From Candidatus Omnitrophota bacterium (GTDB lineage Bacteria; Omnitrophota; Gorgyraeia; Gygaellales; Profunditerraquicolaceae): a stretch of DNA of 60,514 bases. The translations under genes and the position numbers were made by a program. The notes beneath the pieces are model-generated. The model saw only the letters and a program-made list of their open reading frames with translations, made no database searches and was not told where the DNA came from. Every line of letters starts with the position of its first letter. Position 1 is the first letter of the stretch. Positions 18,310-34,541 of the stretch are shown here, one piece after another. The DNA lies in NCBI GenBank assembly GCA_041653115.1, contig JBAZGA010000008.1, forward strand, positions 1-60,514, read 5' to 3'.

Positions 18310-18312
18310 ATT

Positions 18313-18402
18313 TACCTGGTCCCTCGCGTCAACGCCTGGATTCGCTGCAGACGGCTTCTTTGTACGCCCGGGATCAATTCGCAGACGCCGATAGACTAGG
18401 TA
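18313..18402 (+). other. Structured 90-nt leader / rod-like hairpin of unknown class
   Basis: TACCTGGTC 18313-18321/GACTAGGTA 18394-18402; GCGTC/GACGC; CCTGG/CCGGG; TGCAGA/TTTGTA (with G-U pairs); lies between the predicted promoter and the GGAGG RBS. Confidence 0.6.
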
Positions 18403-18421
18403 TAGCATAAGGAGGTATAAG

Positions 18422-19210
18422 ATGGAGTGGGGAATGAAAAACCGTTTGCGCCGATTAATTCAGCCCGACGGGCGCTGTTTCTTTCTGCCGATAGACCACG
18501 GCTATTTTCAGGGGCCGACGCGCTGTTTGGAGAAACCCGGAGAAACGATTAAGCCGTTAATTGAATTTTGCGACGCGCTTTTTGTCACCAGAGGGGTATT
18601 ACGCGCGGCAATAGACCCCTTGCAGACTAAACCGGTTATCTTGCGCGCCTCCGGAGGCACCAGTATGGCCGGTAAAGACCTGGCTAATGAAGGGCTCACT
18701 GCTTCGATAGAAGAAATTATCCGGCTGAATGCCTCGGCAGCAGGTGTTTCGGTTTTTATCGGCAGCGAATATGAGCATCAGACGATTATGAATTTAGCAA
18801 AATTAGTTAATCTTTGCGAAAATTACGGCATTCCGGTAATGGCCGTGACTGCCGTAGGCAAAGAATTGGAGAAGCGCGATGCGCGCTACCTGGCGCTGGC
18901 CTGCCGCATCTGCGCGGAAACCGGCGCGCGGGTAGTAAAGACATATTGGTGCGAAGATTTTGAGAAGGTAGTCTCGGGTTGTCCGGTCCCGGTAGTGATT
19001 GCCGGCGGCCCGAAATGCGAAAGCGAAAAAGAGGTCTTTGAATTTGTTTATGACGGCCTGCAAAAGGGGGCAATCGGCATAAACTTAGGAAGAAATGTCT
19101 GGCAGCACGCGCATCCGGTAGCAATGGCCAAGGCGCTAAAGTCAATTGTGCATGAAAAGGCAAACGTAAAGAAAGCCTGCGAGATATTTAACGAATCAAA
19201 AAGAAAATAA
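18422..19210 (+). CDS. lsrF: LsrF-like class I aldolase-fold thiolase (DhnA family)
   Basis: IDHGYFQGPT, RICAETGARVVKTYW (Schiff-base Lys), VVIAGG, NLGRNVWQ closely resemble LsrF. Confidence 0.8.
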   Translation: MEWGMKNRLRRLIQPDGRCFFLPIDHGYFQGPTRCLEKPGETIKPLIEFCDALFVTRGVLRAAIDPLQTKPVILRASGGTSMAGKDLANEGLTASIEEIIRLNASAAGVSVFIGSEYEHQTIMNLAKLVNLCENYGIPVMAVTAVGKELEKRDARYLALACRICAETGARVVKTYWCEDFEKVVSGCPVPVVIAGGPKCESEKEVFEFVYDGLQKGAIGINLGRNVWQHAHPVAMAKALKSIVHEKANVKKACEIFNESKRK

Positions 19211-19212
19211 AT

Positions 19213-20211
19213 ATGCAGGTTGCGATGTATTACAACAATCGGGATGTGCGCATCGAAGAAATGCCCAGGCCCAAGATCGGGCCGGATGAGTTACTGATTA
19301 AGGTCAGAGCTTCGGGAATTTGCGGCAGCGACGTGCTGGAATGGTACCGCCTGAAAAAAGCCCCCCTGGTTTTAGGGCATGAGGCAACCGGAGAAATTGC
19401 CGAAGCCGGCCAGGCTGTGCGGGAATACCGAATCGGTGACCGCGTTTTTGTTTCCCATCATGTGCCCTGTAACACGTGCCGTTATTGTTTAAGCGGCAAT
19501 CATACGGTTTGCGAAACGCTGCACACCACCAATTATTATCCCGGCGGTTTTTCCGAATATATCCGCGTGCCCAAAATAAATGTCGAGCGCGGAGTATTTA
19601 TCCTGCCCGCAGAGCTCTCCTTTGAAGAAGGCACGTTTATTGAGCCTTTGGCCTGCGTGCTGCGCGGCCAGAGGATGGCGGGCTTGAAACCCGGGCAGAA
19701 GGTTTTGATTTTAGGCGCCGGCATTTCCGGTTTATTGCATCTTTTAGCCGGCCGCACTAAAGGCGTCAAAGAAATTATGATCACGGACATCAATGATTTT
19801 CGCCTGCAATTAGCCAAAGATTTAGGCGCGGTCAGCGTTTTTCATGCTCAAGACGAGAAAATCGCCAATCTGAAGGCAGACTTAGTGATTGTCTGCACCG
19901 GAGCAAGCGCAGCTTTCGAACAGGCCTTGAAATGCGTTGACCGCGCCGGTACAATCTTGTGTTTTGCCGCTACCGAGCCGGGCGTTAACCTTTCTATCCC
20001 GGTGAATGATTTCTGGCGCCAGAGTATAAAAATTATGCATTCTTACGGAGCCAGCCCCCAGGACCTTAAGGAGGCAATAGAGCTGCTGAAGAGAAAAAGC
20101 ATCCCCGTGGAAAGATTGATTACCCACCGTTTAAGCCTGCAAGAGGCAGGCCAGGGTTTCAAGCTGGTAGCCGGAGCCGCCGATTGTCTGAAGGTCATCC
20201 TTATCCCCTAA
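19213..20211 (+). CDS. Zinc-dependent alcohol/polyol dehydrogenase (MDR)
   Basis: GICGSD, LGHEATG, CNTCRYCLSGNHTVC structural Zn site, EPLAC, GAGISG. Confidence 0.92.
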   Translation: MQVAMYYNNRDVRIEEMPRPKIGPDELLIKVRASGICGSDVLEWYRLKKAPLVLGHEATGEIAEAGQAVREYRIGDRVFVSHHVPCNTCRYCLSGNHTVCETLHTTNYYPGGFSEYIRVPKINVERGVFILPAELSFEEGTFIEPLACVLRGQRMAGLKPGQKVLILGAGISGLLHLLAGRTKGVKEIMITDINDFRLQLAKDLGAVSVFHAQDEKIANLKADLVIVCTGASAAFEQALKCVDRAGTILCFAATEPGVNLSIPVNDFWRQSIKIMHSYGASPQDLKEAIELLKRKSIPVERLITHRLSLQEAGQGFKLVAGAADCLKVILIP

Positions 20212-20252
20212 CCGCAATAACTATAAATAGTTTTACCCCTGCTAAAAATTCC

Positions 20253-20281
20253 TTGACAGGCCGGAATTTTACTGGCATAAT
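20253..20281 (+). promoter_or_regulatory. Strong sigma70 promoter at the head of the PKS operon
   Basis: TTGACA (20253-20258), 17 nt, TGG-CATAAT extended -10 (20276-20281). Confidence 0.75.
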
Positions 20282-20294
20282 ATAAAAATTCAAA

Positions 20295-20310
20295 TAGTAA
20301 AATTTTACTA
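20295..20310. promoter_or_regulatory. Perfect 16-bp palindrome, candidate operator
   Basis: TAGTAAAA|TTTTACTA between the predicted TSS and the RBS of 20320. Confidence 0.55.
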
Positions 20311-20319
20311 AGTGAGGCT

Positions 20320-20592
20320 ATGGACTGGAATCCCGAAGTTAAAGCGCGCCTAGAGGCAATGGTGGCAAAAATCCCGGTTTTTCACCGCCATATTACGGAG
20401 GTGGCAGTAATTGAAAGAGCCGAGGAGAATGCCTTAGCCCGCCGGTCAGCGCAAGTGGAAGAACAAGATGTCATCGCCGCCTTTTTTTCCGATGTCCCTT
20501 CTCCCTTTTACAGTATGATGGTCAGGCTGCTTGAACAGTCGGGATTCGATTATAAAAAATACGGTTTTCCCAAGACGCAAAATAAAAAATGA
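20320..20592 (+). CDS. Small helical protein resembling DUF2621 / PCP_red-type domain
   Basis: MDWNPEVKARLE...IPVFHR...AEENA...VEEQDVI pattern resembles this family; by-eye match only. Confidence 0.55.
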   Translation: MDWNPEVKARLEAMVAKIPVFHRHITEVAVIERAEENALARRSAQVEEQDVIAAFFSDVPSPFYSMMVRLLEQSGFDYKKYGFPKTQNKK

Positions 20593-21593
20593 GGGTGACA
20601 GTAATCGGCGCCGGCGCAATCGGCAGCCTGGTTGCCGGCTATTTGAAAAATCAAGGCAGAGAAATCAGCTTAGTCGGCCACGCTGATGCCGTGAAAGCCA
20701 TCCAGGCCGCAGGGTTAAAGATTTCCGGAGTAAGGGGTGACTTTACCGTTCCCCTCGAGATTACGGAAAAATTAACCGGAGCAGCCGACCTGGTAATTCT
20801 GGCGACAAAAACCCAGGATATCGAAGCCGCAATAAAAGATAATCTGCAATTCTTAAGCAACTCCCTGATTCTCACGACGCAAAACGGCATCCAGGCGGAT
20901 TATTTAGCCGCCAAATATCTAGATAAGGAAAAAATCATCTCCAGTATTGTCATGTTCGGCGCTACTTGTTTGAAACCGGGTGAAGTAGTGCATAATTTTG
21001 AAGGCAGTTGGATTATCGGCCGGCTCTCGGGTAAAAATGACACCAGCGTAGAAGATATCGGCGCGGTTTTAAATAAAATTTTCCCCGTGGTGCCGAGCGA
21101 AGAATTGCTGGGAATGAAATATCTGAAAATTTTTGTCAACGCCAATAATTGTATCCCGGCAATCCTGGGGAAAAGCATGCAGGAGGCATTTGCCGACCCC
21201 CCGGTCAGCTCGATTAGTATCGCTATCTGGAAGGAAGGCTTGGAAATCGTGCAAAAAAGTAAAATTAACCTGGTCTCCCTGCCGGATTTTCCCTTAGAGC
21301 GCTTGACTAAATTAACCGCTTTACCGGCAGAGGCAGCGGCAAAAATTTATTCCGGGATTATGATGAATTTAAGCAAGGAGCCGCTTTACGGCTCAATACT
21401 GCAGAGCATTAGACGCGGCAGGCCGTCGGAAATCGATTATTTAAACGGCGAATTCGTCGCTCTCGCCAAGAAAAACGGCCTCAGGGCCAGCTTAAATGAA
21501 AAATTAGTCGAGCTGGTGCACCGGGTAGAAAAGAACGGCAGTTTTTTGAGTAAAGAAGAATTATTAACCGAGACCAAAGGCCTCTATAATTAA
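20589..21593 (+). CDS. Ketopantoate reductase (PanE/ApbA) family oxidoreductase
   Basis: VIGAGAIGS, ATKTQD, TTQNGI, YLKIFVN, GSILQSIRRGRPSEIDYLNG; true substrate unknown. Confidence 0.85.
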   Translation: MRVTVIGAGAIGSLVAGYLKNQGREISLVGHADAVKAIQAAGLKISGVRGDFTVPLEITEKLTGAADLVILATKTQDIEAAIKDNLQFLSNSLILTTQNGIQADYLAAKYLDKEKIISSIVMFGATCLKPGEVVHNFEGSWIIGRLSGKNDTSVEDIGAVLNKIFPVVPSEELLGMKYLKIFVNANNCIPAILGKSMQEAFADPPVSSISIAIWKEGLEIVQKSKINLVSLPDFPLERLTKLTALPAEAAAKIYSGIMMNLSKEPLYGSILQSIRRGRPSEIDYLNGEFVALAKKNGLRASLNEKLVELVHRVEKNGSFLSKEELLTETKGLYN

Positions 21594-22199
21594 ATGAAGC
21601 AGGTGAATACCCCCTTTCCCAGGTTAAAACTTACCGTCACCGGCGTTTTTGGCGAATGCTATCACGGCTATAAAATCGGCGATGAATTGATACTGGAAGA
21701 CTTTACCCATCCGCCGGAATTTTTTTGCTTAGGCCTGGCGCACGCGCTCTTTCCGGTTATCTATGCGCTTAGTTTCGGGGCTAAATTCCCCTTTCGCGAC
21801 AATCAGCGCTCGCTCTCAGTTACCTGCCCGGACGGCGGGAAGCTGGAGTTTAAGGCGGAGATTTTGGATAAGGCGGGTAAAGTAGAAACTTTGGCCAAAG
21901 ACCCCAATTTTAAAGGCCCCAATCCTAAAAAAATGGTGATTGAAGTAGTCAAAGCCAAAGGCAAATGTACTTTCGGCTATAAGGTCGGCGACAAATGGGA
22001 AACCACCGGTTTAAAATGTATCCCTGGTTTCTGCGGAGCAGCTTTTCACTGCGCTTTCCCCGCGCTCTTTGCCTTGAATTTCGGCGCCAAGTTTTTCTTT
22101 ATGGATAAACCGGACAGCATCGATACAGTTACTTGTCCCGACGGCGGAAATATTGTCTTTAAAGTCACCCGATTAGAAGGTGTGGAAAATAGAAAGTAG
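21594..22199 (+). CDS. Tandem TIGR04076-like Cys-rich double-domain protein
   Basis: Two internal repeats: GECYHGYKIGD..FFCLGLAHALFP..TCPDGG and GKCTFGYKVGD..GFCGAAFHCAFP..TCPDGG. Confidence 0.75.
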   Translation: MKQVNTPFPRLKLTVTGVFGECYHGYKIGDELILEDFTHPPEFFCLGLAHALFPVIYALSFGAKFPFRDNQRSLSVTCPDGGKLEFKAEILDKAGKVETLAKDPNFKGPNPKKMVIEVVKAKGKCTFGYKVGDKWETTGLKCIPGFCGAAFHCAFPALFALNFGAKFFFMDKPDSIDTVTCPDGGNIVFKVTRLEGVENRK

Positions 22200-22244
22200 C
22201 CCAATGTAAAGCGTCCCGAGCAAATTAGGCCAAAGCGACCAAAG

Positions 22245-23507
22245 ATGAATAAACGAAGAGTAGTGATTACGGGTTTAGGCGTGATTTCCCCTAACGGCAT
22301 TGGTAAAGACAATGTCTGGCAGGCGATGTCTGGGGGCAAATCGGCAGTAAAAAGGGTAGACAGTTTCGATGTTTCCATTTTTAACACAAAAATCGCCGCC
22401 GAGGTCAGGGACTTTGACCCTTTTCGGCTCGGCCTGACCCATGATGAAGTGATGCGCATGGACAGGTACGTGCAGTTTGGCGTGCTTGGCGCGGATATGG
22501 CGATTAAAGATAGCGGGCTGAATTTTTCTAAAGAAGACCCTGGACGTATCGGCATCTGCTTAGCCAATGCCATTTGCGGCACAAAATATATGGAAGAGGA
22601 GTTCGCCCTGGTCACTGACGACGGCAAAAAGCCGATTGACCCGGCCAAGGTGCGGCCGGACCTTTATGACGCGGCAATGTTTAATACGCCTTCCATTGAG
22701 ATTGCCGCGCGTTACGGCCTCCAGGGAATCTGCAATACTTTATCTACGGGCTGCACTGCCGGCACTGATTCTGTGGGTTTTGGCTTAGAGGCGATTCAAG
22801 ACGGAGAACAGGAGATTATGATTTGCGGGGCGGCAGAAGCGCCGATTACCCCGATTACTTTCGGCGCCTTTGACGTGGTAAATGTCCTGGCAGTCAATAA
22901 CGAAGAGCCGGAAAAGGCCTCGCGGCCCTTTGACAAGAAACGCAATGGCTTTGTTTTATCCGAAGGCGCGGGGATTTTAATCCTTGAAGAATTAAACCAT
23001 GCCCTGAAGCGCAATGCCTATATTTACGCCGAAGTCCTGGGCTTTGGCACCAGCTGCAATGCCTATCATATGACGGATTTGCCGGCAGACGGCACAGCCA
23101 TGGCTAATTGTATTAAGCTGGCCATAGCCGATGCCGGAATTAAAGCGCGGGAAATCGATTATATCAATGCCCACGGCTCCTCTACCAAGATGAATGATAT
23201 TTTCGAAACCGCTGCTTACAAAACGGTCTTTGGCGATTATGCCTATAAGCTCCCGGTGAGCTCCCTAAAGTCGATGATCGGGCATCCTCTGGCTGCGGCT
23301 AATGCCATAGAAATGACCGTCTGCGCGCAGATTTTCGCCAAGAATCTACTCCCTCCGACGATAAACCAGGAGGAGAAAGACCCTTTATGCGATTTGGATT
23401 ATATCCCGAATGTGGCGCGGGAGAAAAAAGTGAAGATGATTATCAAGACTGCCAGCGGCTTCTCGGGAATTCACTCCGCGCTAATTATCAAAAGGTTTGC
23501 AGGATAA
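22245..23507 (+). CDS. Type II PKS ketosynthase alpha (KS)
   Basis: RRVVITGLG, MDRYVQF, active site LSTGCTAGTDSVG (KS-alpha STGCT), SRPFDKKRNGFV, DYINAHGSST, SSLKSMIGH. Confidence 0.9.
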   Translation: MNKRRVVITGLGVISPNGIGKDNVWQAMSGGKSAVKRVDSFDVSIFNTKIAAEVRDFDPFRLGLTHDEVMRMDRYVQFGVLGADMAIKDSGLNFSKEDPGRIGICLANAICGTKYMEEEFALVTDDGKKPIDPAKVRPDLYDAAMFNTPSIEIAARYGLQGICNTLSTGCTAGTDSVGFGLEAIQDGEQEIMICGAAEAPITPITFGAFDVVNVLAVNNEEPEKASRPFDKKRNGFVLSEGAGILILEELNHALKRNAYIYAEVLGFGTSCNAYHMTDLPADGTAMANCIKLAIADAGIKAREIDYINAHGSSTKMNDIFETAAYKTVFGDYAYKLPVSSLKSMIGHPLAAANAIEMTVCAQIFAKNLLPPTINQEEKDPLCDLDYIPNVAREKKVKMIIKTASGFSGIHSALIIKRFAG

Positions 23508-24740
23508 ATGGAAAAAACAGCAATTACCGGCTTAGGAATAGTAGCACCCTCAGGCATCGGCCGCAGGCAATTCTGGGCGAATATCAGGGCCGGCCGCTCT
23601 TTTATCAAAGAGATTAATCGTTTTGACGCCTCCCTTTACCCGTCGCATATCGCCGGCCAGATTGACGAATTAAATAAATACAGCACTGTCTCCGAGCGGC
23701 TCTTGAAAAAAATGGATACTTTTTCGCATATGGCATTGATTGCCGCGGAGCTGGCGCTGCAGGATGCCGGGGTCGAGATTAGAAAAGAAGACCCTAACCT
23801 CGTCGGCATATTTTTAGGCAATGCTATCGGCGGCTGGCTCTATGCCGAGACAGAGCTGCGCGATATGTACATTGAAGGCCGCGAAGGCGTCTCTCCTTAT
23901 ATGGCCTCAGCCTGGTTTCCGGCTGCGCCCCAGGGCCAAGTCTCCATTTATTACGGGATCAAGGGTTTTTCCAAGACTGTGGTCGCTGACAGGGCAAGTT
24001 CCCTGGAAGCGATTGGTTATGCCCGCAAGACTTTAAGCAAGGGAAAATTAAATCTGATTTTAGCCGGCGGTATGGAAGCGCCGGTTACGCCTTACGCGCT
24101 TTTATGCTGCAATACTTACGGCGGGCTCTCTACAGATAATGCGCACCCGGAGAGCGCTTACCGGCCTTTTGACCGCAAGCGCAGCGGTTTTGTCATTGGA
24201 GAAGGCGCCGGGATTATGGTGATGGAGAGCGTAGAGCGGGCCAAGAAACGCAATGCCACTATCTGGGCGGAGGTATCCGGCTACGGCACCAGCTGCGACG
24301 GAGTTGACCGCATTCAACCGGATGTTTCCGGAAAAGAATTAGCCCGGGCCATGCGCATGGCTTTGCTGGATGCCAAAATTACGCCTGAACAAATCGACTA
24401 CATCAGTTTAGACGGCTTAGCCGTAGAAATCTGGGATAAAAGCGAAGTGAATGCGATAAAAGAAGTTTTCGGCGCCAGCGCTAAAAAAATCCCGGTCAGC
24501 TGCCCGAAAACGATGTTCGGCAACCTGCTCGGCGCCTCGGGCGCAGTGGATTTAATCATTACCATTCTGGCGATGGAGCATAATTTAATTCCGCCGACAC
24601 TTAATCTGGACGACCCGGACTTAAACGGGCTGAATTATATCAAACAGGAAGCTAAAGAAGGAAAAATTAATAAGGCGATGATTATCTCGCGCGGCAGAGG
24701 CGGGATAAATTCAGTTTTGGTAGTTGAGAAAGGAGCTTAA
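23508..24740 (+). CDS. Type II PKS chain-length factor (KS-beta)
   Basis: ITGLGIVAPSG, AWFPAAPQGQVSI, VADRASSLEAIGYAR (no Cys), YRPFD, SLDGLA in place of AHG; starts directly after the KS-alpha stop (TAAATG). Confidence 0.88.
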   Translation: MEKTAITGLGIVAPSGIGRRQFWANIRAGRSFIKEINRFDASLYPSHIAGQIDELNKYSTVSERLLKKMDTFSHMALIAAELALQDAGVEIRKEDPNLVGIFLGNAIGGWLYAETELRDMYIEGREGVSPYMASAWFPAAPQGQVSIYYGIKGFSKTVVADRASSLEAIGYARKTLSKGKLNLILAGGMEAPVTPYALLCCNTYGGLSTDNAHPESAYRPFDRKRSGFVIGEGAGIMVMESVERAKKRNATIWAEVSGYGTSCDGVDRIQPDVSGKELARAMRMALLDAKITPEQIDYISLDGLAVEIWDKSEVNAIKEVFGASAKKIPVSCPKTMFGNLLGASGAVDLIITILAMEHNLIPPTLNLDDPDLNGLNYIKQEAKEGKINKAMIISRGRGGINSVLVVEKGA

Positions 24741-24744
24741 AGCA

Positions 24745-26205
24745 ATGAAGATTCTTTTTGTGATGCCGAAAGTCGGCGCCTGGGCTACGCACGGGATACA
24801 CCGTTCGCCGAACCAGCTCTATGCGCACTGGGCAGCCTATGTGCGGGAGAGGGGTTATGCTGATGTGGCGGTGATTGACGGCAAAGCCGAGCAGATTCCC
24901 ATGGATGAACTGGTGGAGCGGGTGAAAAGTAAAAACCCCGATGTAGTAGTAATGGGCGAGCAGCTGCACGGCTACGGCGGATACGGAGTCTTAAGGCATT
25001 TTAAGGAAGCAGCGCAAAAGATTAAACGCGCACTCCCGAAAACAAAGATAATCCTGGGCGGTTTATGGTATTCGGCGATGCCCGTACCGACCCTGGAAGA
25101 GAACCCGGAAGTAGATTTCGTGGTCATGGGCGAAGAAGAGTCCTTCGGAGATTTAATTGAGGCGATAGATAAGAATAAGGATTTAAAAGACGTGGGCGGA
25201 GTGACTTCTCGCCTGGACGGAAAAATCGTCATGGGGCCGCATAAGCCGCTCCTGGAAGATTTGGATAAACTCCCCTTGCCGGCATATGATTTATTTCCCA
25301 TGGATAAATACGTCGGCCACACTTACTGGAAGCCGTTTGTGGATATGGTTACTTCCCGCGGCTGCCCGTCCGCGTGCACTTTCTGTTACGAGTGGGACCA
25401 GTTTGACCCGCGCTCCCCGTCGGACTTCTTGAAATGGCGCGCCAAATCACCGGAACGCGTGATTGAAGAAATGGAGCTCCTGCAGAACAAATACGGGACC
25501 AAGGTGGTAGTTATCCAGGACGACAATTTTAACGTTGACCCGGCACGCGTGAAAAAATTCTGTGAATTAAAAAAGCAGAAAAAGATAGATATCAAATGGG
25601 TTTCCCTGGGCCGGGCGATCGACTGGGTGAACTGCGAGTCCATCCTTCCTTTAATGAAGGAGACAGGGCTTTTTATGGGTGTATTCGGCATCGAGGTGAC
25701 CACGCAGTCGGAGCTGAAGAAAATCGCCAAAGGCATCACCATTGAGCAGATTCAAAAGACGATTGAAATCCTGCGTAAGCACGATATCGCCATTGTCGCC
25801 GACATTATGATGGGTTTTGATTACGATACCGAGGCGATTGTCAAGCAGCGCTTTGAATTCACCGATGCGGTTGACCCGGATATTCTCTGGGTCGGTTATG
25901 TCACGCCGGCGCCGAACTCTCCGATGTGGCGGATTGCCTTAAAGAAGAACTGGATTGACCCGAAAAAAGTGGATTTCAGCACCTGGGACTTTCTGCACCC
26001 GGTCATTCCTACCGACTACCTGACGATTGAGGATTTAGGCCGGCTGGGCTCCTGGTGTATGCGCGAATTCTTCTCCAAACCGGGCAGAATTAACCGGATT
26101 ATGGAGAGTAATTTTGACCCCCTGGCCAAGCTTTGCTTCAAGGATGTGATGGACGGCATTAATAAATGGGAAGCAGCCGCGACCAAGGGCGAAGTGCAGA
26201 TATAA
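24745..26205 (+). CDS. Cobalamin-dependent radical SAM enzyme
   Basis: N-terminal B12-binding-type Rossmann domain (PDVVVMG, IILGG, DFVVMGEEE), LPLPAYDL, TSRGCPSACTFC, DDNFN; ATG 24745 after AAGGAG preferred over TTG 24724. Confidence 0.88.
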   Translation: MKILFVMPKVGAWATHGIHRSPNQLYAHWAAYVRERGYADVAVIDGKAEQIPMDELVERVKSKNPDVVVMGEQLHGYGGYGVLRHFKEAAQKIKRALPKTKIILGGLWYSAMPVPTLEENPEVDFVVMGEEESFGDLIEAIDKNKDLKDVGGVTSRLDGKIVMGPHKPLLEDLDKLPLPAYDLFPMDKYVGHTYWKPFVDMVTSRGCPSACTFCYEWDQFDPRSPSDFLKWRAKSPERVIEEMELLQNKYGTKVVVIQDDNFNVDPARVKKFCELKKQKKIDIKWVSLGRAIDWVNCESILPLMKETGLFMGVFGIEVTTQSELKKIAKGITIEQIQKTIEILRKHDIAIVADIMMGFDYDTEAIVKQRFEFTDAVDPDILWVGYVTPAPNSPMWRIALKKNWIDPKKVDFSTWDFLHPVIPTDYLTIEDLGRLGSWCMREFFSKPGRINRIMESNFDPLAKLCFKDVMDGINKWEAAATKGEVQI

Positions 26206-26227
26206 AATTTTAAGCGGAGGTTATGCA

Positions 26228-26464
26228 ATGGACACCAAAGCAAAAATTAAAGAAGTTTTAGTGAATTTATTAAAGGTCAGGCCGGAAGAGCTGAAGGACG
26301 AAATCAATCTCACCGATTCTATCGGCGTGGATTCTACGGAAATGGTAGAGACCGTGATTGCCCTGGAAAAAGCCTTCTCTACCAAGCTTAGCCCGCAGGA
26401 AATCACCAAGTTCTCAAGCATTAATGATATCGAAAAAATAATTCAGTCAAAGCTGGGCAAATAA
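26228..26464 (+). CDS. Acyl carrier protein
   Basis: 78 aa, acidic, IGVDSTEMVE phosphopantetheine serine motif. Confidence 0.9.
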   Translation: MDTKAKIKEVLVNLLKVRPEELKDEINLTDSIGVDSTEMVETVIALEKAFSTKLSPQEITKFSSINDIEKIIQSKLGK

Positions 26465-26466
26465 TA

Positions 26467-27267
26467 ATGCAGATAATTGACTTAAGTTTGCCGATTGACG
26501 AAAAGGCGTTTGAAGTCCATAAGGTCGATATTGAACGCACTTCCCATGCCGCGGGTGTAGAAAAATTCAACCGCGTGATTATGGGCAAGACCCTGGCCGG
26601 AAAAATACGCTATTCTTTAGGCCGGCGCATCATCAAAAAAGAGGATTTACCTGACCAGGAATTCTTATCGCTGGAAGTAGTGCATGCTCCGGTGCATATC
26701 GGCACCCACCTGGATTATTCCTTCCATTACGGCTCAAAATCAGAAGGCCGCGCCTCCAAAACCGCAGAAGAGATTCCTTTAGAATGGTGCTATGCTGACG
26801 GGGTAAAGCTGGATTTAACGCAGAAAAAGCCGGAGGAAACGATTAAGGCGGAAGATTTAGAGCAGGCCTTAAAAAAGCTCAATTATTCCTTAAAAAGTTT
26901 GGATATCGTGCTCTTAAATACCGGAGCGGATAAGTTCTACGGCTCGCCGAAATATTTTTCCGAATACCCGGGAGTAGATATTTCGGCAATTGATTATCTC
27001 TTGGACAGGGGGGTAAAGGTTTTCGGCGTGGATACAATGGGGATTGACCGGCCTTATAAGTTTATGCTCAAGGAATTCTCGGCCACTAAAGACCCCAAGA
27101 CATTTTACCCGGCGCATTTTTACGGCCGGAAAAGGGAATTCATCCACATCGAGCGCTTAGCCCGTCTGAATCAGTTGCCGGGCTTTGGATTCAAAGTGAT
27201 TTGCTTTCCGGTAAGGATTAAAAATACCGGGGCTGCCTGGTCAAGAGTGGTGGCGATAACCGATTAA
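26467..27267 (+). CDS. Polyketide cyclase, kynurenine-formamidase-like family (OxyN/ZhuJ/DpsY type)
   Basis: IIDLSLP, HIGTHLDYSFHYG, PLEWCYADGV, YPG, GVDTMGID, HIERL, GAAWSRVVA. Confidence 0.85.
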   Translation: MQIIDLSLPIDEKAFEVHKVDIERTSHAAGVEKFNRVIMGKTLAGKIRYSLGRRIIKKEDLPDQEFLSLEVVHAPVHIGTHLDYSFHYGSKSEGRASKTAEEIPLEWCYADGVKLDLTQKKPEETIKAEDLEQALKKLNYSLKSLDIVLLNTGADKFYGSPKYFSEYPGVDISAIDYLLDRGVKVFGVDTMGIDRPYKFMLKEFSATKDPKTFYPAHFYGRKREFIHIERLARLNQLPGFGFKVICFPVRIKNTGAAWSRVVAITD

Positions 27268-27272
27268 GGGGG

Positions 27273-27319
27273 AAATTAGTTCCTCGCCCCGGCTTTTCGC
27301 CGGTGCTCGGAATAAATTT
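27273..27319. repeat. Intra-operon rod-like hairpin
   Basis: AAATT/AATTT, GTTCC/GGAAT, CCGGC/GCCGG around a TTTTC loop; CTCG on both arms gives a tandem UC/UC mismatch. Confidence 0.65.
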
Positions 27320-27345
27320 TCTATTACTAGGGAGGAGGAAAATTT

Positions 27346-27786
27346 ATGGGTCATACATGTAATTCGATAATCATCAATGCTCCTTACGATAAGGTCTTTG
27401 ATATTTCTAATGATATCCCGCGCTGGACAGAATTATTCGGCACGGAATATCAGAAGGCAGAAGTATTGGAAAAGAAAGACAATAAGATTACTTTCCGCCT
27501 GACCGATGAAGAAGGCAAGTCCTGGGTCTCCCGGCGGCTTTTGTTCAAGGATAAATACCTTGCTTATGCCCAGCGCCACGAGCCGCTCTTTCCCTTCAAA
27601 TACATGAAAATTATTTGGCTTTATACGCCAAAAGGCCAAGGCGTAGAGTTGGCATGGATTCAACACTTTGAAATGGATGAAAAAGCCAAGTTCAATGACC
27701 AGCAGGTTGAAGGTTTTATCAATCAGGGCTCGCAGCATAACCTGAAAATTTTCAAAGCGATTATTGAAAAAGAAGCAGGCAAGTGA
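27346..27786 (+). CDS. Monodomain aromatase/cyclase (TcmN/WhiE-ORFVI/ZhuI type, SRPBCC fold)
   Basis: HTCNSIIINAPYDKVFDISNDIPRWTELF-TEY, WVSRR, YAQRH, PFKYMKIIW, WIQHFEM align by eye with the TcmN ARO/CYC domain. Confidence 0.88.
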   Translation: MGHTCNSIIINAPYDKVFDISNDIPRWTELFGTEYQKAEVLEKKDNKITFRLTDEEGKSWVSRRLLFKDKYLAYAQRHEPLFPFKYMKIIWLYTPKGQGVELAWIQHFEMDEKAKFNDQQVEGFINQGSQHNLKIFKAIIEKEAGK

Positions 27787-28907
27787 AGAAATCCACTTTT
27801 ATCATTCTTTGCCTCGAGGGAGCAGTGCTTTCTTTTAATGTAGCTGCCTGCGCTGCTCTAATTCCTTCGATTGCCGCTGATTTTGCTCTTTCCCAGCTTT
27901 TTGTCGGCAGGATTACCTGGGTTTATATGCTCCCCTACGGCCTTGCCGCGCTCTTCTACGGCCCCCTGGTGCGGCTGATTGATGCTAAAAAGGTAGAGTT
28001 GCTTTGCCTGAGCTTATTTTCATTGGCTAATCTTTTGGCAGCTTTCTCTAAAAGCATCTCTGCTCTTTTTTTCGCCAGGTTTATGATGGGCCTCTTTGGC
28101 GCGTCGGTTATACCGCTGGGGATTATATTGATTGCCAGGCATGTGGAAGAGCAGAAGCGCGGTAAGTCTATCGGGATTTTTTTCGGGGCAACCTTTGCCG
28201 CATCGCTTTTAGGGCTGTTCTTAAGCGGCATCATCCATTGGCGCCTGATTTTTCTTATCCCCGGGCTCTTTGGCTTTTTCTTATGCGCGGTAATATACTT
28301 ATATCTACCCAGCTTTAAGCGGGACACCGGAGTATTTAAGCTGAATTATTTGCCGGCGCTTGGCAATAAGAGCTTCTTAGCGATATTTATCTATATCTTC
28401 TTTATCAGCCTGATTTATCACGGCGTACAGCAGTGGCTGGCAGTCTATTTTTCCACGAGCTTTGGATTTACCCAGCTTTTGATCAGCGGCCTGATTACGC
28501 TGACCAGTTTAAGCGGAATTTTCGGGGAATTTTTTGGCGGGGCATTGGCAGATTCCCTGGGCAGGGTAAAGACCATCAATTTAGGGATTTTACTGATGAT
28601 TTTAAGCATTCTCTCTCTGGGTTTTAAGTCTCCGCTTTTTGTGCTGATACCAATAATGATTGCCTGGGGCCTGGGCTGGACTTTTAACCACGCCGGGCTC
28701 TCCACGATGCTTACGGATTTACCGCAGGGTTTCTTGAATGAAGCAGCCAGCTTAAACAGCGGGGTGCGTTTTATCTCCGGAGGCCTGGGCGTAGCTATCG
28801 GCGGTATCTTTATCCAGAAGAGTTTTGTTTTTAGTTTTATTATTTTCGCCCTGGGTTTAAGCGCCCTGTTTTTATTGGAAAGAAAATTATTGATCGCAAA
28901 AAGTTAA
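27783..28907 (+). CDS. MFS transporter (probable product exporter)
   Basis: About 12 hydrophobic helices, FFARFMMG, GALADSLGR; GTGA overlap with the aromatase. Confidence 0.88.
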   Translation: MKKSTFIILCLEGAVLSFNVAACAALIPSIAADFALSQLFVGRITWVYMLPYGLAALFYGPLVRLIDAKKVELLCLSLFSLANLLAAFSKSISALFFARFMMGLFGASVIPLGIILIARHVEEQKRGKSIGIFFGATFAASLLGLFLSGIIHWRLIFLIPGLFGFFLCAVIYLYLPSFKRDTGVFKLNYLPALGNKSFLAIFIYIFFISLIYHGVQQWLAVYFSTSFGFTQLLISGLITLTSLSGIFGEFFGGALADSLGRVKTINLGILLMILSILSLGFKSPLFVLIPIMIAWGLGWTFNHAGLSTMLTDLPQGFLNEAASLNSGVRFISGGLGVAIGGIFIQKSFVFSFIIFALGLSALFLLERKLLIAKS

Positions 28908-28981
28908 TCCTCGCACAAGATGGGAGACGGAGGATCAATTTTCGGACGAGTGATAGCGGTAAAATTGAGGAGGGTAAGAAG

Positions 28982-29758
28982 ATGAGCCAGGATTTAAAAG
29001 GGAAAAGCGCGATTATTACGGGAGCCAGCCGCGGAATAGGTAAAGCCATTGCCTCTACCTGCGCCAGTTTAGGGATTAATTTGACGATTGCCGCGCGCCA
29101 GGAAGGGCCGTTAAAAGAAGCTGCCGATGAGATTGCCAAAAAATATAAAGTCCAGGTTCTGCCTCTGGTTTGCGATGTCTCAAAGCTGGAAGATTTAGAG
29201 AATCTGGTCAATAAAACCAGGGAAAAGTTCGGCAAAATCGATATTCTGATTAATAATGCCGGAGTCTCCAGCCAGTATCCGTTCCCCGAGCAGCCAATGG
29301 AAGACATCGAAAAATTAGCCCACACCAATTACCTGGGTTATGTGCGTTTAATCCGCTTAGTGATTAATGAGATGATTAAAAATAAGTCCGGCGCCATCAT
29401 TAACATGGTCTCCGGCTCAACGCTCTGCGACCCCCTGCCGCGCAATTTCCTCGTTTATAGCTCTTTAAAAGTAGGCTTACGCTCCTTTTTAAAAGGGCTC
29501 TTCTGGGAGATCCGCGACCACGGGATTAAAATTACTTCGCTTTTGCCTGGCGTAACGGATACCGACCTCACCGGAAAGTTAAAAGAAGTCACTACGGATA
29601 CTTCGCGCTTGATGACTACCGAAGCGATTGAAAACGCGGTGAAGTTTGCCTTGACTGTGCCGGCAAATGTTTGCCCGTTAGAAATCGCGATTATCAATCA
29701 GCAGACGCCCTGGACTGCGCCGGTTATTCCCTTTAAGCAAACGCATCCGCAGAAATAG
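28982..29758 (+). CDS. Short-chain dehydrogenase/reductase (possible ketoreductase)
   Basis: TGASRGIG, INNAG, YSSLK (YxxxK). Confidence 0.9.
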   Translation: MSQDLKGKSAIITGASRGIGKAIASTCASLGINLTIAARQEGPLKEAADEIAKKYKVQVLPLVCDVSKLEDLENLVNKTREKFGKIDILINNAGVSSQYPFPEQPMEDIEKLAHTNYLGYVRLIRLVINEMIKNKSGAIINMVSGSTLCDPLPRNFLVYSSLKVGLRSFLKGLFWEIRDHGIKITSLLPGVTDTDLTGKLKEVTTDTSRLMTTEAIENAVKFALTVPANVCPLEIAIINQQTPWTAPVIPFKQTHPQK

Positions 29759-29760
29759 TT

Positions 29761-30150
29761 ATGGATAAGCAGGAGATTAAAAACTTAAAGAAACGCTATC
29801 TTATCTGGTTCTATAAGACCAGCAAAGAGGCGCTGGATAAAATTGAGCGCAAATTTACCCAGGCGGAAATCGATAAATTTATCCTCAAAGAGCTGCGTAA
29901 ACAAAGCAAGCCGGAATTAGAGAAGTTCATTCTTGATTTTGAAACTTACATTACCGATAAAGAAAAGGCCGGCCAGGAATTAAAATATGAAAACGGTAAA
30001 TTAAAGCCGGATTACCAGTTTTTAGTCTTCAAATTAGCGGCAATTGAAAAAGCGATTTCTAAAGAGCTCGGTAAAAAGGCCTTAGATGAAATCAAGGCGC
30101 TCTATGAAATGGAGATGGCCGAGCGGATCTTAAAAAGCACGGAGCACTGA
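29761..30150 (+). CDS. Hypothetical helical protein
   Basis: Coupled between the SDR and the amidohydrolase (TGATG overlap); no recognised motif. Confidence 0.7.
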   Translation: MDKQEIKNLKKRYLIWFYKTSKEALDKIERKFTQAEIDKFILKELRKQSKPELEKFILDFETYITDKEKAGQELKYENGKLKPDYQFLVFKLAAIEKAISKELGKKALDEIKALYEMEMAERILKSTEH

Positions 30151-31061
30151 TGATTATAGACAGTCATAGCCACTGGTTACCAAAAGAAATCATTGAGAAT
30201 GCCCACTTCTTCCATAAGGGCTGGGGGGATCTGGAGGCGCAGATAAAAATGATGACTGAAGCCGGCATTGACAAAGCAGTCCTGTCATACCCGACTTCTG
30301 ACGCGCACCTGAAGCTGGGCAGTATCAGCTTAACCAGCCGCATTTACAATGACTATGTAGCAAAGCTTTGCCGGCACCATGCGGATAAGTTTATTGGCGC
30401 GGCAGTCTTGCCGGTAGATAGTAATGAGGAGCTGATTGGTGAGTTTAAGCGTGTTACAGGAGAGCTGGGGTTTAAGGCGCTCTCTCTGGCTACCAGCTAT
30501 AACGGCAAATACCTTGATGACGCGATATTTTTACCTATATATAAAGTAGCGCAGGAGAAGAATATCCCGATTTTTGTGCATTCACAGATTGTGCACCCGA
30601 TCGGCTCGGAGCGCGTGCAGGACCCGCTTTTAACGCCGGTAATCGAATATGTCTTTGATACGACGATTTGTATCGGCAAGCTCTTGATGTCGGGAGTCTT
30701 GAAGGATTATCCGGATCTGAAGTTTATCTTTGCCAGTTTTGGCGGCGCGATTCCTTATTTGCAGCACCGCTTTGATGCTACTTATCAGATGCTGCGGGGG
30801 ATGAATTTTGTCAAAGACCTGGGCAAAAACCCCACGGAATACCTGAAGCATATTTATGTGGATACCGGAGGCGATAAGACCAGGGCGAATTATCAGCTGG
30901 CTTTGGAATTCCTGGGGCCGGAGCATATTCTCTGGGGCTCGGATTGGCCGGCGAAAAAAGATGTCGCAGGCGGCATTGCCGCGGTAAAAGATTTGGATAT
31001 TAGCGAAGCAGATAAAAATAACATTTTAGGCGGGAACATCGCCCGAATTTTAGCTCTTTAA
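30150..31061 (+). CDS. Amidohydrolase_2 family protein (ACMSD / aromatic-acid decarboxylase-like)
   Basis: IIDSHSH, PIFVH, FGGAIPY, YVDT, ILWGSDWP, ILGGNIARIL. Confidence 0.85.
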   Translation: MIIDSHSHWLPKEIIENAHFFHKGWGDLEAQIKMMTEAGIDKAVLSYPTSDAHLKLGSISLTSRIYNDYVAKLCRHHADKFIGAAVLPVDSNEELIGEFKRVTGELGFKALSLATSYNGKYLDDAIFLPIYKVAQEKNIPIFVHSQIVHPIGSERVQDPLLTPVIEYVFDTTICIGKLLMSGVLKDYPDLKFIFASFGGAIPYLQHRFDATYQMLRGMNFVKDLGKNPTEYLKHIYVDTGGDKTRANYQLALEFLGPEHILWGSDWPAKKDVAGGIAAVKDLDISEADKNNILGGNIARILAL

Positions 31062-31083: not shown

Positions 31084-31270
31084 AAAAGAACTGTTTTGCG
31101 TGTGCCGAGGCATGTTTCTCGCAGCACCGCTCCATTTTCCCCACCGAGGAAAATGTCGCTTCGAGTTTGCGCTCGCTCGCCCCTGCCCTGTATTAGCGTG
31201 GGCACCGTGGCCGCTCGCACAAACTAGATGCTGCTCAAAGCACGCCCCGTCCCCCGCAAAAAGAGTTTCT
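31084..31270. repeat. About 185-nt multi-stem palindromic element (MITE/REP-like)
   Basis: TTTTGCG 31094-31100/CGCAAAA 31255-31261; CAGCA/TGCTG; CATTTTCC 31133-31140/GGAAAATG 31148-31155; AGTTTG/CAAACT; TGCCC/GGGCA; many CTCG/TTCG motifs. Confidence 0.6.
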
Positions 31271-31290
31271 TTAAAGCAAGGAGTCGAAAA

Positions 31291-31794
31291 ATGGAGTTTA
31301 TAAAATGGTTAATAGGAACTTCTCTTTTTGGCGCAGTAATTGGATTTTTCTTAGGTAAATTTGGTACTATTTGGGATGATAAAAGAAAAGAGAAAGGCGA
31401 GAGTTCCCAATTGTTTAGGAATTTGCTTCAAGAAATTGGGAACAATAGATTTAAGTGCCAGGCTATTATTCAAGGTAGGGACGCTGTGTATTTTGAAGTT
31501 TACTCATGGGATGTCTTAAGATTAAGTAAATATTTTTCTCTTTTAACTTCCGATAGAAGCCTTGTCGATGATTTATACAATCTCTATTTTTCAATTTATC
31601 AAGCTAATATTAGAGTAGGAGGCGTTCTATCAGCAATAGATAGCCAGATTAGAACGGCAACTATAAATACGAATATGGCAAGTACTACTACTCAAGTATT
31701 AAGAGATTTTCTTAATGTGGTCTTGTTACCACGATTAAATATTTTAGAAGGCAATCTCTCGACTTTTTTAAGGGAACGTAAAATAATTAAGTAG
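31291..31794 (+). CDS. AT-rich hypothetical protein with N-terminal TM helix
   Basis: ATG at 31291 after AAGGAG preferred over 31228; visibly more AT-rich than its neighbours. Confidence 0.7.
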   Translation: MEFIKWLIGTSLFGAVIGFFLGKFGTIWDDKRKEKGESSQLFRNLLQEIGNNRFKCQAIIQGRDAVYFEVYSWDVLRLSKYFSLLTSDRSLVDDLYNLYFSIYQANIRVGGVLSAIDSQIRTATINTNMASTTTQVLRDFLNVVLLPRLNILEGNLSTFLRERKIIK

Positions 31795-31877
31795 TAAAAC
31801 TATAAAATAGGGGACGGTTCAGTTTTAGCGGGTGGCGGGGATTGGTTTCGAGCAGCATTTAGAAAATTCGAACGGGG

Positions 31878-32339
31878 ATGAAAAAGTCACAGCTAATTAT
31901 GGTTTGGTTTCTGCCGGTTATTGTCATCGGCGGGTTATTTTATCCGCTATTAGGGTATCTGGTGGTGGCAATGATGGCGGTATTTTTGACATTGGCGTTT
32001 TTCAGAGGCAGGTATTGGTGCTGGAACTTATGCCCGCGCGGCGCTTTCTTGGATATGGTGATGTCAAGGGTGAGCCTGAAAAAGCCCCTGCCAGGAACTT
32101 TTCTCAAAGAATGGTTCCGCTGGCTGGTATTCATTTTATTCATCAGCTTCCTTGCCTTTCGGATTATCAGGGCAGGCGGGAGCATAATTGCCATCGGCGC
32201 GGTTTTTGTGGGAATGTGCATATTAACAACCGTGATTTCCATGATTTTGGGAGTTATAGCCAAGCATCGGAGCTGGTGCGCGATTTGCCCGATGGGAATG
32301 CTGCAGGATAAAATTGGCAAGTTAAATAAAAAAGCTTAA
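31878..32339 (+). CDS. Small membrane 4Fe-4S-binding protein (NapH/MauN-like CxxxCP motifs)
   Basis: GRYWCWNLCPRGAF and RSWCAICPMG between TM helices. Confidence 0.8.
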   Translation: MKKSQLIMVWFLPVIVIGGLFYPLLGYLVVAMMAVFLTLAFFRGRYWCWNLCPRGAFLDMVMSRVSLKKPLPGTFLKEWFRWLVFILFISFLAFRIIRAGGSIIAIGAVFVGMCILTTVISMILGVIAKHRSWCAICPMGMLQDKIGKLNKKA

Positions 32340-32354
32340 AAGGAGCCGGAGCTT

Positions 32355-34540: not shown

Positions 34541-34541
34541 G

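Follow-up and report, generated by a model that had tools for sequence, protein, structure and literature searches.

A probable aromatic polyketide synthase operon of Omnitrophota that lacks oxygenase genes and carries a predicted cobalamin-dependent radical SAM enzyme

How could a bacterium build an aromatic polyketide if molecular oxygen takes no part in it? Aromatic polyketide synthases (PKSs) of type II count as textbook machinery of actinomycetes and depend on oxygen, and few examples from anaerobes have been characterised. The question is raised by an operon at positions 20320-31061 of a 60,514-nt stretch of Omnitrophota DNA, which is called the window here and whose numbering is used throughout. 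A preliminary description had read this operon, from the letters of the DNA, as an aromatic type II PKS system without oxygenases and with a cobalamin radical SAM (S-adenosylmethionine) enzyme, in an anaerobe-like diderm, and that core is supported by the sequence comparisons given below. Our own reading, to which we give a probability of about two in three, is that we are looking at the core of a PadR-controlled and vertically inherited Omnitrophota operon that builds an aromatic polyketide without molecular oxygen.

The operon consists of 13 intact and densely packed genes, all on the plus strand:

20320-20592, plus strand: g1, a DUF2621 helical protein of 90 amino acids (Pfam DUF2621, 28.9 bits, above the cutoff)
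20589-21593, plus strand: g2, an NAD(P)H oxidoreductase of the ApbA/PanE family (Pfam ApbA and ApbA_C; TIGR00745 175 bits, cutoff 141)
21594-22199, plus strand: g3, a tandem TIGR04076 protein, two repeats with GxC, FC and TCPDGG motifs (TIGR04076 E 3.5e-28, in two stretches)
22245-23507, plus strand: g4, the catalytic ketosynthase (KS) of the alpha type, KS-alpha, with STGCTAG, AHGSS and GHPL motifs (called from the triad, the ranking of solved structures and the tree)
23508-24740, plus strand: g5, a catalytically dead KS partner resembling a chain-length factor (CLF) (Cys to Arg, His to Asp, His to Asn)
24745-26205, plus strand: g6, a cobalamin-type (class B) radical SAM protein, BchE-like, with a CPSACTFC motif (Pfam B12-binding and Radical_SAM)
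26228-26464, plus strand: g7, an acyl carrier protein (ACP) with a DST motif (Pfam PP-binding, PF00550, E 1e-9)
26467-27267, plus strand: g8, a PF04199 "cyclase" of the OxyN/ZhuJ type with an HxGTHxD motif (Pfam Cyclase, E 7e-30)
27346-27786, plus strand: g9, a single-domain aromatase/cyclase of the TcmN/WhiE type, SRPBCC fold (matches WhiE and TcmN structures)
27783-28907, plus strand: g10, an MFS transporter, an optional member (Pfam MFS_1)
28982-29758, plus strand: g11, a classical short-chain dehydrogenase/reductase (SDR) (Pfam adh_short)
29761-30150, plus strand: g12, a conserved protein of 129 amino acids (no Pfam or NCBIfam family match)
30150-31061, plus strand: g13, an Amidohydro_2 protein of the ACMSD, LigW and gamma-resorcylate decarboxylase group (Pfam, E 4e-29)

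Neighbouring genes overlap at four junctions (by 4 nt at three of them and by 1 nt at the other), abut exactly at two or are separated by gaps of 2-78 nt, and every gene that the preliminary description named is intact and in its place.

That the operon encodes a type II PKS is indicated by the KS. Its Cys-His-His triad (STGCTAG, AHGSS, GHPL) is invariant among 74 sequences, and against the solved structures of the PDB it scores 389 bits with the actinorhodin KS, 355 with AntD of Photorhabdus and at most 342 with FabF. The top matches among 72,556 plasmids are all KS-alpha genes of type II PKSs at 43-49% identity (Azospirillum 49%, Bacillus bombysepticus 48%, the Streptomyces matches listed 43-47%), and the genes annotated as fabF all lie at 40% or lower. 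In a maximum-likelihood tree with labelled references the Omnitrophota KSs form one clade (support 100/99), which is joined first by the type II PKS KSs of Azospirillum and Bacillus (98/94) and then by Streptomyces KS-alpha (100/99), while FabF and NodE fall outside the KS-alpha clade. The start codon of the CLF gene abuts the KS stop codon, and the three catalytic residues of its product are replaced by Arg, Asp and Asn in the motifs ADRASS, LDG and GNLL, which are again invariant in the 74 sequences. The expected dead partner of the KS is thus present, but the Gln of canonical CLFs is not. Its place is taken by Arg, and the same DRASS occurs in the CLFs encoded at type II PKS loci from Azospirillum and Bacillus, so that Arg looks like a trait of non-actinomycete CLFs. 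The ACP has conserved its phosphopantetheine serine in the motif GVDSTE.

The aromatase also supports this reading. When compared with solved structures g9 finds WhiE (3TL1, E 3.6e-24) and TcmN (E 1e-23), and ZhuI merely at 0.045. Its residues Y35, S62, R64 and R77 align with Tyr35, Ser67, Arg69 and Arg82 of TcmN (alignment to 3TVQ/2REZ) and are invariant or at least 90% conserved in the 74 sequences. In TcmN itself Tyr35, Arg69 and Arg82 are catalytic and Ser67 is an anchor (PMC9014085, PMC10945814), and the first ring is closed between C9 and C14 by enzymes of this type (PMC10945814). The assignment of a TcmN-type aromatase in the preliminary description is therefore borne out, both by the match and by the kept equivalents of the catalytic residues, and the same can be said of its OxyN/ZhuJ-type cyclase as far as g8 is a member of PF04199. 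The best solved relatives of g13 are ACMSD and 5-carboxyvanillate decarboxylase (E about 5e-23), with gamma-resorcylate decarboxylase also among them; no NCBIfam model reaches significance for this protein, which may instead be a hydrolase or lactonase. For the SDR, g11, a role as C9-ketoreductase was considered and rejected, as the actinorhodin ketoreductase is not named among its 53 best solved relatives.

The gene that sets the operon apart lies between CLF and ACP. The protein g6 has an N-terminal B12-binding domain (PF02310, E 3e-12), a radical SAM domain (PF04055, E 5e-21) and an invariant CPSACTFC motif, and by these domains it is predicted to be a cobalamin-dependent radical SAM enzyme of class B. 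The open reading frame (ORF) as listed begins with TTG at 24724, but since all homologues are 486 amino acids long, the likely start is the ATG at 24745, 4 nt after the CLF stop codon. Within the operon it is the best-conserved gene, 54% of its positions being invariant.

The three head genes are less easily named. An AlphaFold2 model of g3 is of good quality (pLDDT 86, pTM 0.82), and a Foldseek search of the PDB with it gave no fold match (best E 0.27). The model of g1 (pLDDT 87) is a confident helical bundle whose best match in a fold search of the PDB is 2L09, with a probability of 0.98 but an E-value of 0.16. We call g1 a DUF2621 protein and not a PCP_red protein, an identity that was tried and dropped, because no Pfam PCP_red match was found at E 0.01 or below. 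In another locus, L088, it has a homologue in the C-terminal domain of U32-family proteins (35% identity, E 3e-13), and the U32 family includes the O2-independent hydroxylases UbiU and UbiV. At positions 5197-12374 of L088 there are three such U32 "peptidase"-family proteins, each ending in a DUF2621 domain homologous to g1, and their genes are surrounded by methyltransferase genes and by radical SAM genes of the B12-binding, HemN-like and SPASM kinds, which gives L088 the look of a further locus for tailoring without oxygen.

No oxygenase, P450, phosphopantetheinyl transferase (PPTase) or malonyl transacylase domain was found by Pfam and NCBIfam in the 13 operon proteins or in the five conserved proteins downstream of them, just as had been claimed for the operon. 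Neither the operon nor its leader contains any Rfam family, riboswitches included, and the base composition of the operon resembles that of the rest of the window. The sequencing runs that carry the operon sequence are of DNA only, from groundwater, subsurface, landfill and sediment samples.

Is such an operon an oddity of one genome? More than 120 proteins are related to the KS at 81-94% identity, and all the named ones among them come from metagenome-assembled genomes (MAGs) of Candidatus Omnitrophica/Omnitrophota. When one genome per species was searched with the radical SAM protein, its gene turned up in 175 species genomes, and the best 80 are 86-94% identical and almost all labelled Omnitrophota. 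A survey of synteny, which the preliminary description had called for, was made over 83 loci and gave the same row throughout, i.e. g1, g2, g3, KS, CLF, radical SAM, ACP, cyclase, aromatase, (MFS), SDR, (a variable gene), g12 and amidohydrolase, while the outer flanks differ; such recurrence goes far beyond what chance would give. The median identity is 90% for the radical SAM protein, 85% for the TIGR04076 protein, 84% for the SDR, 83% for a phosphorylase encoded downstream, 79% for the KS, 78% for both aromatase and cyclase and 77% for the CLF, and AccA of the same loci lies at 78%. The small g12 is found in 58 loci with a median of 57%. An MFS gene occupies its slot in about half of the loci, so that the transporter, rightly counted as an operon member here, is an optional one elsewhere. 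Synonymous divergence (dS) is saturated. Nonsynonymous divergence (dN) rises from the radical SAM gene (0.054) through SDR (0.085), phosphorylase (0.112), TIGR04076 protein (0.119) and KS (0.136) to the aromatase (0.137), six genes of the unit that all evolve more slowly than accA (0.159). Saturated dS, low dN and the kept gene order argue that the operon is old, vertically kept and strongly constrained and not a recently spread island, and its conservation across at least 175 species suggests a physiologically important product and not a sporadic antibiotic. Antibiotic, pigment and quinone-like carrier had been left side by side in the preliminary description; this conservation speaks against a sporadic antibiotic and for a physiological role. 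Several third-party annotation (TPA) loci, L004, L010 and L020 among them, place the operon in MAGs deposited as "uncultured Planctomycetales bacterium", and these labels are probably wrong since the radical SAM protein is 87-93% identical to that of the window, the same range as in loci labelled Omnitrophota. Faulty binning probably explains a 2.5-kb contig that bears the label Deltaproteobacteria (L079).

The conserved unit does not end with the amidohydrolase gene at 31061 but extends to 38482. Between the PKS part and a nucleoside module at 32868-38482 lies an insert that is found in this genome only:

31228-32825, plus strand: lineage-specific insert with three small ORFs of 188, 159 and 156 amino acids (0-1 homologues in the 83 loci)
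32868-34540, plus strand: nucleoside phosphorylase (PNP_UDP_1) and MtnA-like sugar-1-phosphate isomerase (Pfam, NCBIfam)
34542-35543, plus strand: class II aldolase fused to an SCP2 lipid-binding domain (Pfam Aldolase_II, E 2e-34, and SCP2)
35540-38482, plus strand: aldehyde dehydrogenase (ALDH) and FadD/4CL-like acyl-CoA ligase (Pfam)

In many loci the amidohydrolase is followed directly by phosphorylase, MtnA, the aldolase-SCP2 fusion and ALDH, and the ligase comes next in all those whose retrieved flank is long enough to show it. The second ORF of the insert contains a terminator-like hairpin followed by a T-run (31910-31934), and because of the insert ORFs and this hairpin the PKS part and the nucleoside module may be separate transcripts in the window. 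The extent given in the preliminary description holds for the genes that it listed and falls short of the conserved unit, which has a probable operator at its head and the module at its end. The phosphorylase is of the uridine phosphorylase/DeoD-like kind (122 bits, below the cutoff; 25 bits with the MTAP model) and is neither an MTAP nor an MtnN equivalog. The isomerase reaches the eIF-2B_rel subfamily model with 198 bits (cutoff 186) and stays below the mtnA equivalog model with 226 bits (cutoff 279). Among solved structures the ligase is closest to FadD5, a putative long-chain-fatty-acid CoA ligase, oxalyl-CoA synthetase, feruloyl-CoA synthetase and 4CL, with acetyl-CoA synthetase lower. 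At the end of the unit an RlmN-like radical SAM ORF (38379-39521) overlaps the ligase gene by about 100 nt as listed, for which reason its true start is probably further downstream; an RlmN-like N-terminus that follows the exporter block of another locus, L159, suggests shared synteny at this end.

At the head of the operon a promoter, a palindrome and, further upstream, a regulator gene are found:

20253-20281, plus strand: sigma-70-type promoter TTGACA-17 nt-TG-n-CATAAT (11 of 12 positions, extended -10)
20295-20310, palindromic and without strand: probable operator TAGTAAAATTTTACTA, 16 bp long and perfectly palindromic, downstream of the -10 box and ahead of the ribosome-binding site
15864-16811, plus strand: AccA, acetyl-CoA carboxylase carboxyltransferase alpha (Pfam ACCA, E 1e-153)
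16808-17323, plus strand: PadR-family regulator, probable repressor of the operon (Pfam PadR, E 6e-14)

The strong promoter that had been claimed is indeed close to consensus and was the top match within the 20 kb scanned. The palindrome was recognised by aligning upstream regions and has a single exact copy in the window. Exactly one copy is present in 61 of 88 loci, just upstream of the first operon gene wherever that gene was located, and its position is held even in the rearranged loci L084 and L087; a TTGAC box precedes it in nearly all homologous loci. The order YkuD-AccA-PadR-operon occurs in about 25 of the 83 loci, mostly directly before the operon, and from the sequences the palindrome is probably the operator of PadR. 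In the window the PadR gene has been displaced 3 kb upstream by four inserted genes. These inserts (17362-20211) are genes for a flavodoxin-like protein, for a PilZ protein (this one on the minus strand), for an aldolase of the DeoC family and for a Zn-dependent alcohol dehydrogenase. Homologues of the three that served as queries, those other than PilZ, occur in just 2-6 of the 83 loci. Aldolase and alcohol dehydrogenase make up another sugar-phosphate-to-aldehyde pair beside the operon.

A metagenome scan with the promoter and operator pattern gave 80 matching loci, of which about 45 are of the window type, eight are rearranged (type B) and about ten belong to a short type (type C). PadR adjoins the operator in loci of all three types, and in type B as well as most loci of type C the gene row behind the operator opens with the CoA ligase. 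Five matches (L100, L130, L131, L165 and L173) are followed by unrelated genes and were discounted as chance hits. The short type (L117, L159, L102, L110, L121, L139, L141) has the order (aldolase), CoA ligase, (methyltransferase), (second ligase) and MMPL/HAE3 exporter, together with two predicted secreted proteins that have signal-peptide-like N-termini; no PKS or radical SAM gene occurs in these loci within up to 12.5 kb. One of them, L117, keeps YkuD-AccA-PadR upstream. In the window itself 0.57 operator matches with three mismatches or fewer are expected by chance, and a near-operator at 41572-41587 (two mismatches) was rejected as a regulon site, for it fronts a tRNA gene and was judged a chance match. 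It lies just upstream of the plus-strand member of two divergent tRNA genes at 41393-41672.

The relatives of g6 outside this group show how the parts can be combined. Among 1.8 billion representative proteins they follow at 48, 45, 38, 38 and 35% identity, after which there is a BchE-like background mostly at about 27-37%. The 48% group (L084/L085) has the same gene set as the window in another order, namely operator, CoA ligase, phosphorylase, MtnA in two pieces, aldolase, ALDH, a small MamF/MmsF-family protein and radical SAM, then DUF2621, PanE-like reductase, DUF4440, KS, an 85-residue ORF, CLF and ACP, and finally cyclase, aromatase, SDR, a small PC4-like protein and amidohydrolase. The 45% group (L087) has operator, methyltransferase, CoA ligase, radical SAM, phosphorylase, MtnA, the aldolase-SCP2 fusion, ALDH and an MMPL/HAE3 exporter; in L084 the aldolase is longer by a similar amount. 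A divergent Omnitrophota MAG (L086) has radical SAM, DUF2621, PanE-like reductase, TIGR04076 protein, KS, CLF, ACP, cyclase, two family-less proteins, aromatase, a 64-residue ORF and amidohydrolase, followed by a second radical SAM gene and DUF3800. Beyond DUF3800 this locus (12370-21446) continues with a molybdoenzyme like 4-hydroxybenzoyl-CoA reductase, with FAD, 2Fe-2S and Mo subunits (alpha subunit TIGR03194, 720 bits) and a run of molybdenum-cofactor biosynthesis genes attached, a hint that an aromatic CoA thioester may be (de)hydroxylated anaerobically.

Since the same set persists through rearrangements, PKS, radical SAM enzyme and nucleoside module appear to be functionally tied, and since versions without PKS exist, radical SAM enzyme, module and ligase can apparently also work without it. 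The tightest partner of the radical SAM gene is the nucleoside module, which also occurs without PKS. The preliminary description had called the enzyme embedded in the PKS operon, and so it is, but the mere tailoring function it implied is too simple, as the nearest outside relatives adjoin the nucleoside module. In L084 and L086 the genes g1 and g2 directly follow the radical SAM gene, and their products thus probably work with it.

Taken together, an oxygen-free route can be sketched. By homology, KS-alpha, its dead CLF-type partner and the ACP would make a poly-beta-keto chain from malonyl units, the first ring of which would be closed by the TcmN/WhiE-type aromatase as TcmN does at C9-C14 on an unreduced chain. 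The PF04199 (OxyN-type) cyclase would be available for later rings, the SDR and the PanE-like enzyme for reductions, and the LigW/ACMSD-type amidohydrolase for non-oxidative decarboxylation of an ortho-hydroxy aromatic acid. The BchE-like radical SAM enzyme may do the C-H chemistry that is the task of oxygenases in aerobes, either C-methylation or an oxidation in the style of BchE with water, and DUF2621 and the tandem TIGR04076 proteins are probably its partners. Released 5'-deoxyadenosine could be cleared by phosphorylase, MtnA and aldolase as in the dihydroxyacetone phosphate (DHAP) shunt. The SCP2 domain, the FadD-like ligase and the MMPL exporter of the relatives suggest that the product or an intermediate is lipophilic, and the very strong conservation would fit a physiological role, for example as a redox-active or envelope aromatic lipid or pigment. 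One could go further, and tentatively suppose that the PadR-operator regulon of a large Omnitrophota lineage and at least two related uncultured lineages makes a lipophilic aromatic polyketide wholly without O2, with an ancestral type II PKS for the rings, a new BchE-like radical SAM family and its DUF2621/TIGR04076 partners in the place of oxygenases, a biosynthetic SCP2-aldolase/ALDH/ligase branch, and a product that is a core redox-active or envelope lipid, e.g. a non-isoprenoid quinone, of cells that are ultra-small anaerobes. So complete a picture is speculative and unlikely to be right as a whole.

Several observations weigh against an oxygen-free aromatic pathway as we read it. The preliminary description had itself named a grouping of KS and CLF with FabF as fatal, and although the KS stands firmly in the KS-alpha clade, the CLF is tied to canonical CLFs in the tree with a support of only 55/69, scores higher with FabF (312 bits) than with the actinorhodin CLF (248 bits) in the PDB, and has Arg at the position of the active-site Cys of the KS, where Streptomyces CLFs have Gln (D/EQAGG). 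The only solved relative of g8 is isatin hydrolase, a weak match, which means that its solved relatives are hydrolases only, and the neighbours of g11 in the PDB are generic SDR and FabG enzymes. For g6 the best named family is BchE (TIGR02026), with 211.7 bits over residues 10-437, far below the cutoff of 481.35. L087 has no PKS gene on its 16-kb contig, where radical SAM and nucleoside module stand together, so the primary partner of the radical SAM enzyme may not be the PKS. An SCP2 fusion and a ligase that is not of the acetyl-CoA synthetase type fit poorly with plain disposal of 5'-deoxyadenosine to acetaldehyde and acetate, control by a repressor and an MFS pump such as about half of the loci encode are also typical of ordinary secondary-metabolite clusters, and no RNA sequencing run carrying the KS gene was found.

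Some of these points are what other explanations would predict. An ordinary secondary-metabolite cluster would make an exported aromatic antibiotic or pigment of the clostrubin/dendrubin kind against hosts or competitors, and only upon derepression; the strong promoter with its conserved candidate operator, the PadR-family regulator nearby, the efflux gene and the MMPL exporters of sister operons would all suit it, as would the fact that the characterised type II PKS products of anaerobes have so far all been antibiotics or pigments (PMC7693217) and that Omnitrophota include predicted predators and parasites (PMC10066038). We nevertheless find it unlikely, because a row kept in at least 175 species with saturated dS and six genes slower than accA is unusual for an accessory antibiotic cluster, half of the loci dispense with the exporter, and there is neither a resistance gene nor any island sign in the base composition. 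A non-aromatic pathway for a lipid, be it FAS-like (fatty acid synthase), ladderane-like or a polyene, in which the SRPBCC and PF04199 proteins would bind lipids or act as hydrolases, could draw on the nearness of the CLF to FabF rather than to actinomycete CLFs, on NCBIfam, which would name both KS and CLF beta-ketoacyl-ACP synthase II-like, on acyl chains that can be bound by SRPBCC proteins (PMC9014085), and on SCP2, FadD-like ligase and MMPL as accessories of a lipid type. It could also draw on the "ladderane" clusters reported in Omnitrophota MAGs (PMC9902471), which may be nothing else than this operon, its KS and B12-radical SAM genes having triggered the label. Such a pathway is highly improbable given the fully supported place of the KS in the KS-alpha clade, an SRPBCC protein that is specific to TcmN/WhiE (E 1e-24 versus 0.045 for ZhuI) with Tyr35, Ser67, Arg69 and Arg82 kept, the lack of a dehydratase or enoyl reductase in the operon, and a score of g6 with the ladderane-type radical SAM model TIGR04072 of merely 78.1 bits at a cutoff of 360.

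A different division of labour is also conceivable, in which radical SAM enzyme and nucleoside module form one biosynthetic route. A 5'-C-linked (or 5'-alkylated) adenosyl adduct would be set on a hydrophobic acceptor, phosphorylase, MtnA and the SCP2-tethered aldolase would trim its ribose to a two-carbon aldehyde arm, and ALDH and the FadD-like ligase would turn the arm into an acyl-CoA that primes or decorates the polyketide. This would account for the company kept by the closest outside relatives of g6 (44-48% identity), which adjoin ligase, phosphorylase, MtnA, aldolase and ALDH in two architectures, one of them on the contig without PKS; for the lipid-binding domain on the aldolase in both the window type and L087; for a ligase nearer to FadD5, 4CL and feruloyl-CoA ligases than to acetyl-CoA synthetase and placed first after the operator in the rearranged and most short-type loci; and for a phosphorylase that is no MTAP or MtnN equivalog. 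The order phosphorylase-isomerase-aldolase is however exactly that of the published DHAP shunt for 5'-deoxyadenosine, and the sequence gives no indication of an acceptor. A KS with a dead partner can self-prime from malonyl-ACP, and if this one does, no special starter is required. To our knowledge the adenosyl-adding radical SAM enzymes MqnE and HpnH carry no cobalamin domain, and we know of no precedent among cobalamin-type enzymes for the use of adenosyl as a building block, which also counts against it. We regard the adenosyl route as doubtful and retain the reading of an operon that builds its aromatic polyketide without oxygen.

If that is correct, this is a version of the aromatic type II PKS without any oxygenase, arranged around a very strongly conserved B12-radical SAM enzyme and kept under purifying selection in no fewer than 175 species of a phylum that has no isolates and whose genomes are tiny and streamlined. 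A physiological product, whether electron carrier, envelope lipid or protectant, would be a missing piece of Omnitrophota biology, and the chemistry would be a new O2-independent way to functionalise aromatic rings. For natural-product chemists the operon is a compact target for expression, with 13 genes in this genome, or about 18 if the conserved module downstream is counted, and one of the closest KS relatives found is from a Proteobacterium. The invariant 16-bp palindrome is a handle for finding regulon members in metagenomes.

How does the operon compare with systems that are already known? The downstream module shares its enzyme order, phosphorylase, isomerase and class II aldolase, with the DHAP shunt or 5-deoxyribose salvage (MtnP or a kinase, MtnA/DrdI, Ald2/DrdA). 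It differs in its non-MTAP phosphorylase, in the SCP2 domain on the aldolase, in the added ALDH and FadD-like ligase, and in being built as a whole into a PKS operon under one operator. Like BchE, the oxidative cyclase of Mg-protoporphyrin IX monomethyl ester, g6 has a cobalamin domain and a radical SAM core, and by analogy it might share with BchE an O2-free chemistry on a planar aromatic substrate; unlike in the setting of BchE there are no chlorophyll genes here, and the nearest relatives of g6 are unnamed metagenomic proteins in like operons. Radical SAM tailoring of a type II aromatic polyketide has a precedent in CoeI, which is HemN-like and not of the B12-binding subfamily as g6 is. CoeI methylates an anthraquinone whose type II PKS cluster came from a soil metagenome and was expressed in Streptomyces (PMC9714029). 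HemN-like enzymes of this kind belong to class C, which is not known to depend on cobalamin. Among solved structures g13 is nearest to LigW, gamma-resorcylate decarboxylase and ACMSD, which decarboxylate aromatic or conjugated acids independently of O2 and whose chemistry suits ortho-hydroxy aromatic acids. TcmN and WhiE-ORFVI (PDB 2RER/3TVQ and 3TL1/3TVR) have the same length as g9 and belong to the same fold family (E about 1e-24, all four key residues kept), with an identity of about 35-40% and with deletions of three and two residues in g9 before the Ser67/Arg69 region, the second of which removes the equivalent of Trp63.

In the literature we found no characterised or described equivalent of the operon. 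Candidatus Omnitrophica is listed, without further detail, among the 14 phyla with KS-CLF pairs in a catalogue from 2023 (PMC10132072), and this phylum listing is all that we found; the main paper on Omnitrophota genomics mentions neither polyketides nor radical SAM enzymes (PMC10066038), and an antiSMASH survey of groundwater OP3 bins lists no PKS and reports complete B12 synthesis (PMC5383146).

The PKS itself has known relatives. KS, CLF, ACP, a single TcmN and OxyN make up the "ancestral" architecture of the clostrubin, wexrubicin and resistomycin clusters (Ishida et al. 2020, PMC7693217), and clr, wex and rem have the same minimal PKS, single-domain TcmN and OxyN/PF04199 cyclase as the operon, a likeness by gene set; the den, ant and pcy clusters have a doubled TcmN (PMC7693217), in contrast to the single one here. 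The ancestral group shares its occurrence in anaerobes or non-actinomycetes, and the KS of the operon branches with those of non-actinomycete type II PKSs. The Azospirillum, Bacillus and Streptomyces clusters used for comparison carry ABM or FAD monooxygenases, and those of Azospirillum and Bacillus also a PPTase, none of which is present in the operon. Unlike the ancestral clusters it has a cobalamin radical SAM gene between CLF and ACP, a head of DUF2621, PanE-like and TIGR04076 genes and a tail for nucleoside cleavage with ALDH and ligase, and whereas those clusters are found in few strains, this one is shared by much of a phylum. This kind of PKS is already known, and it is its combination with a B12-radical SAM gene, the head genes and the nucleoside tail that appears to be new.

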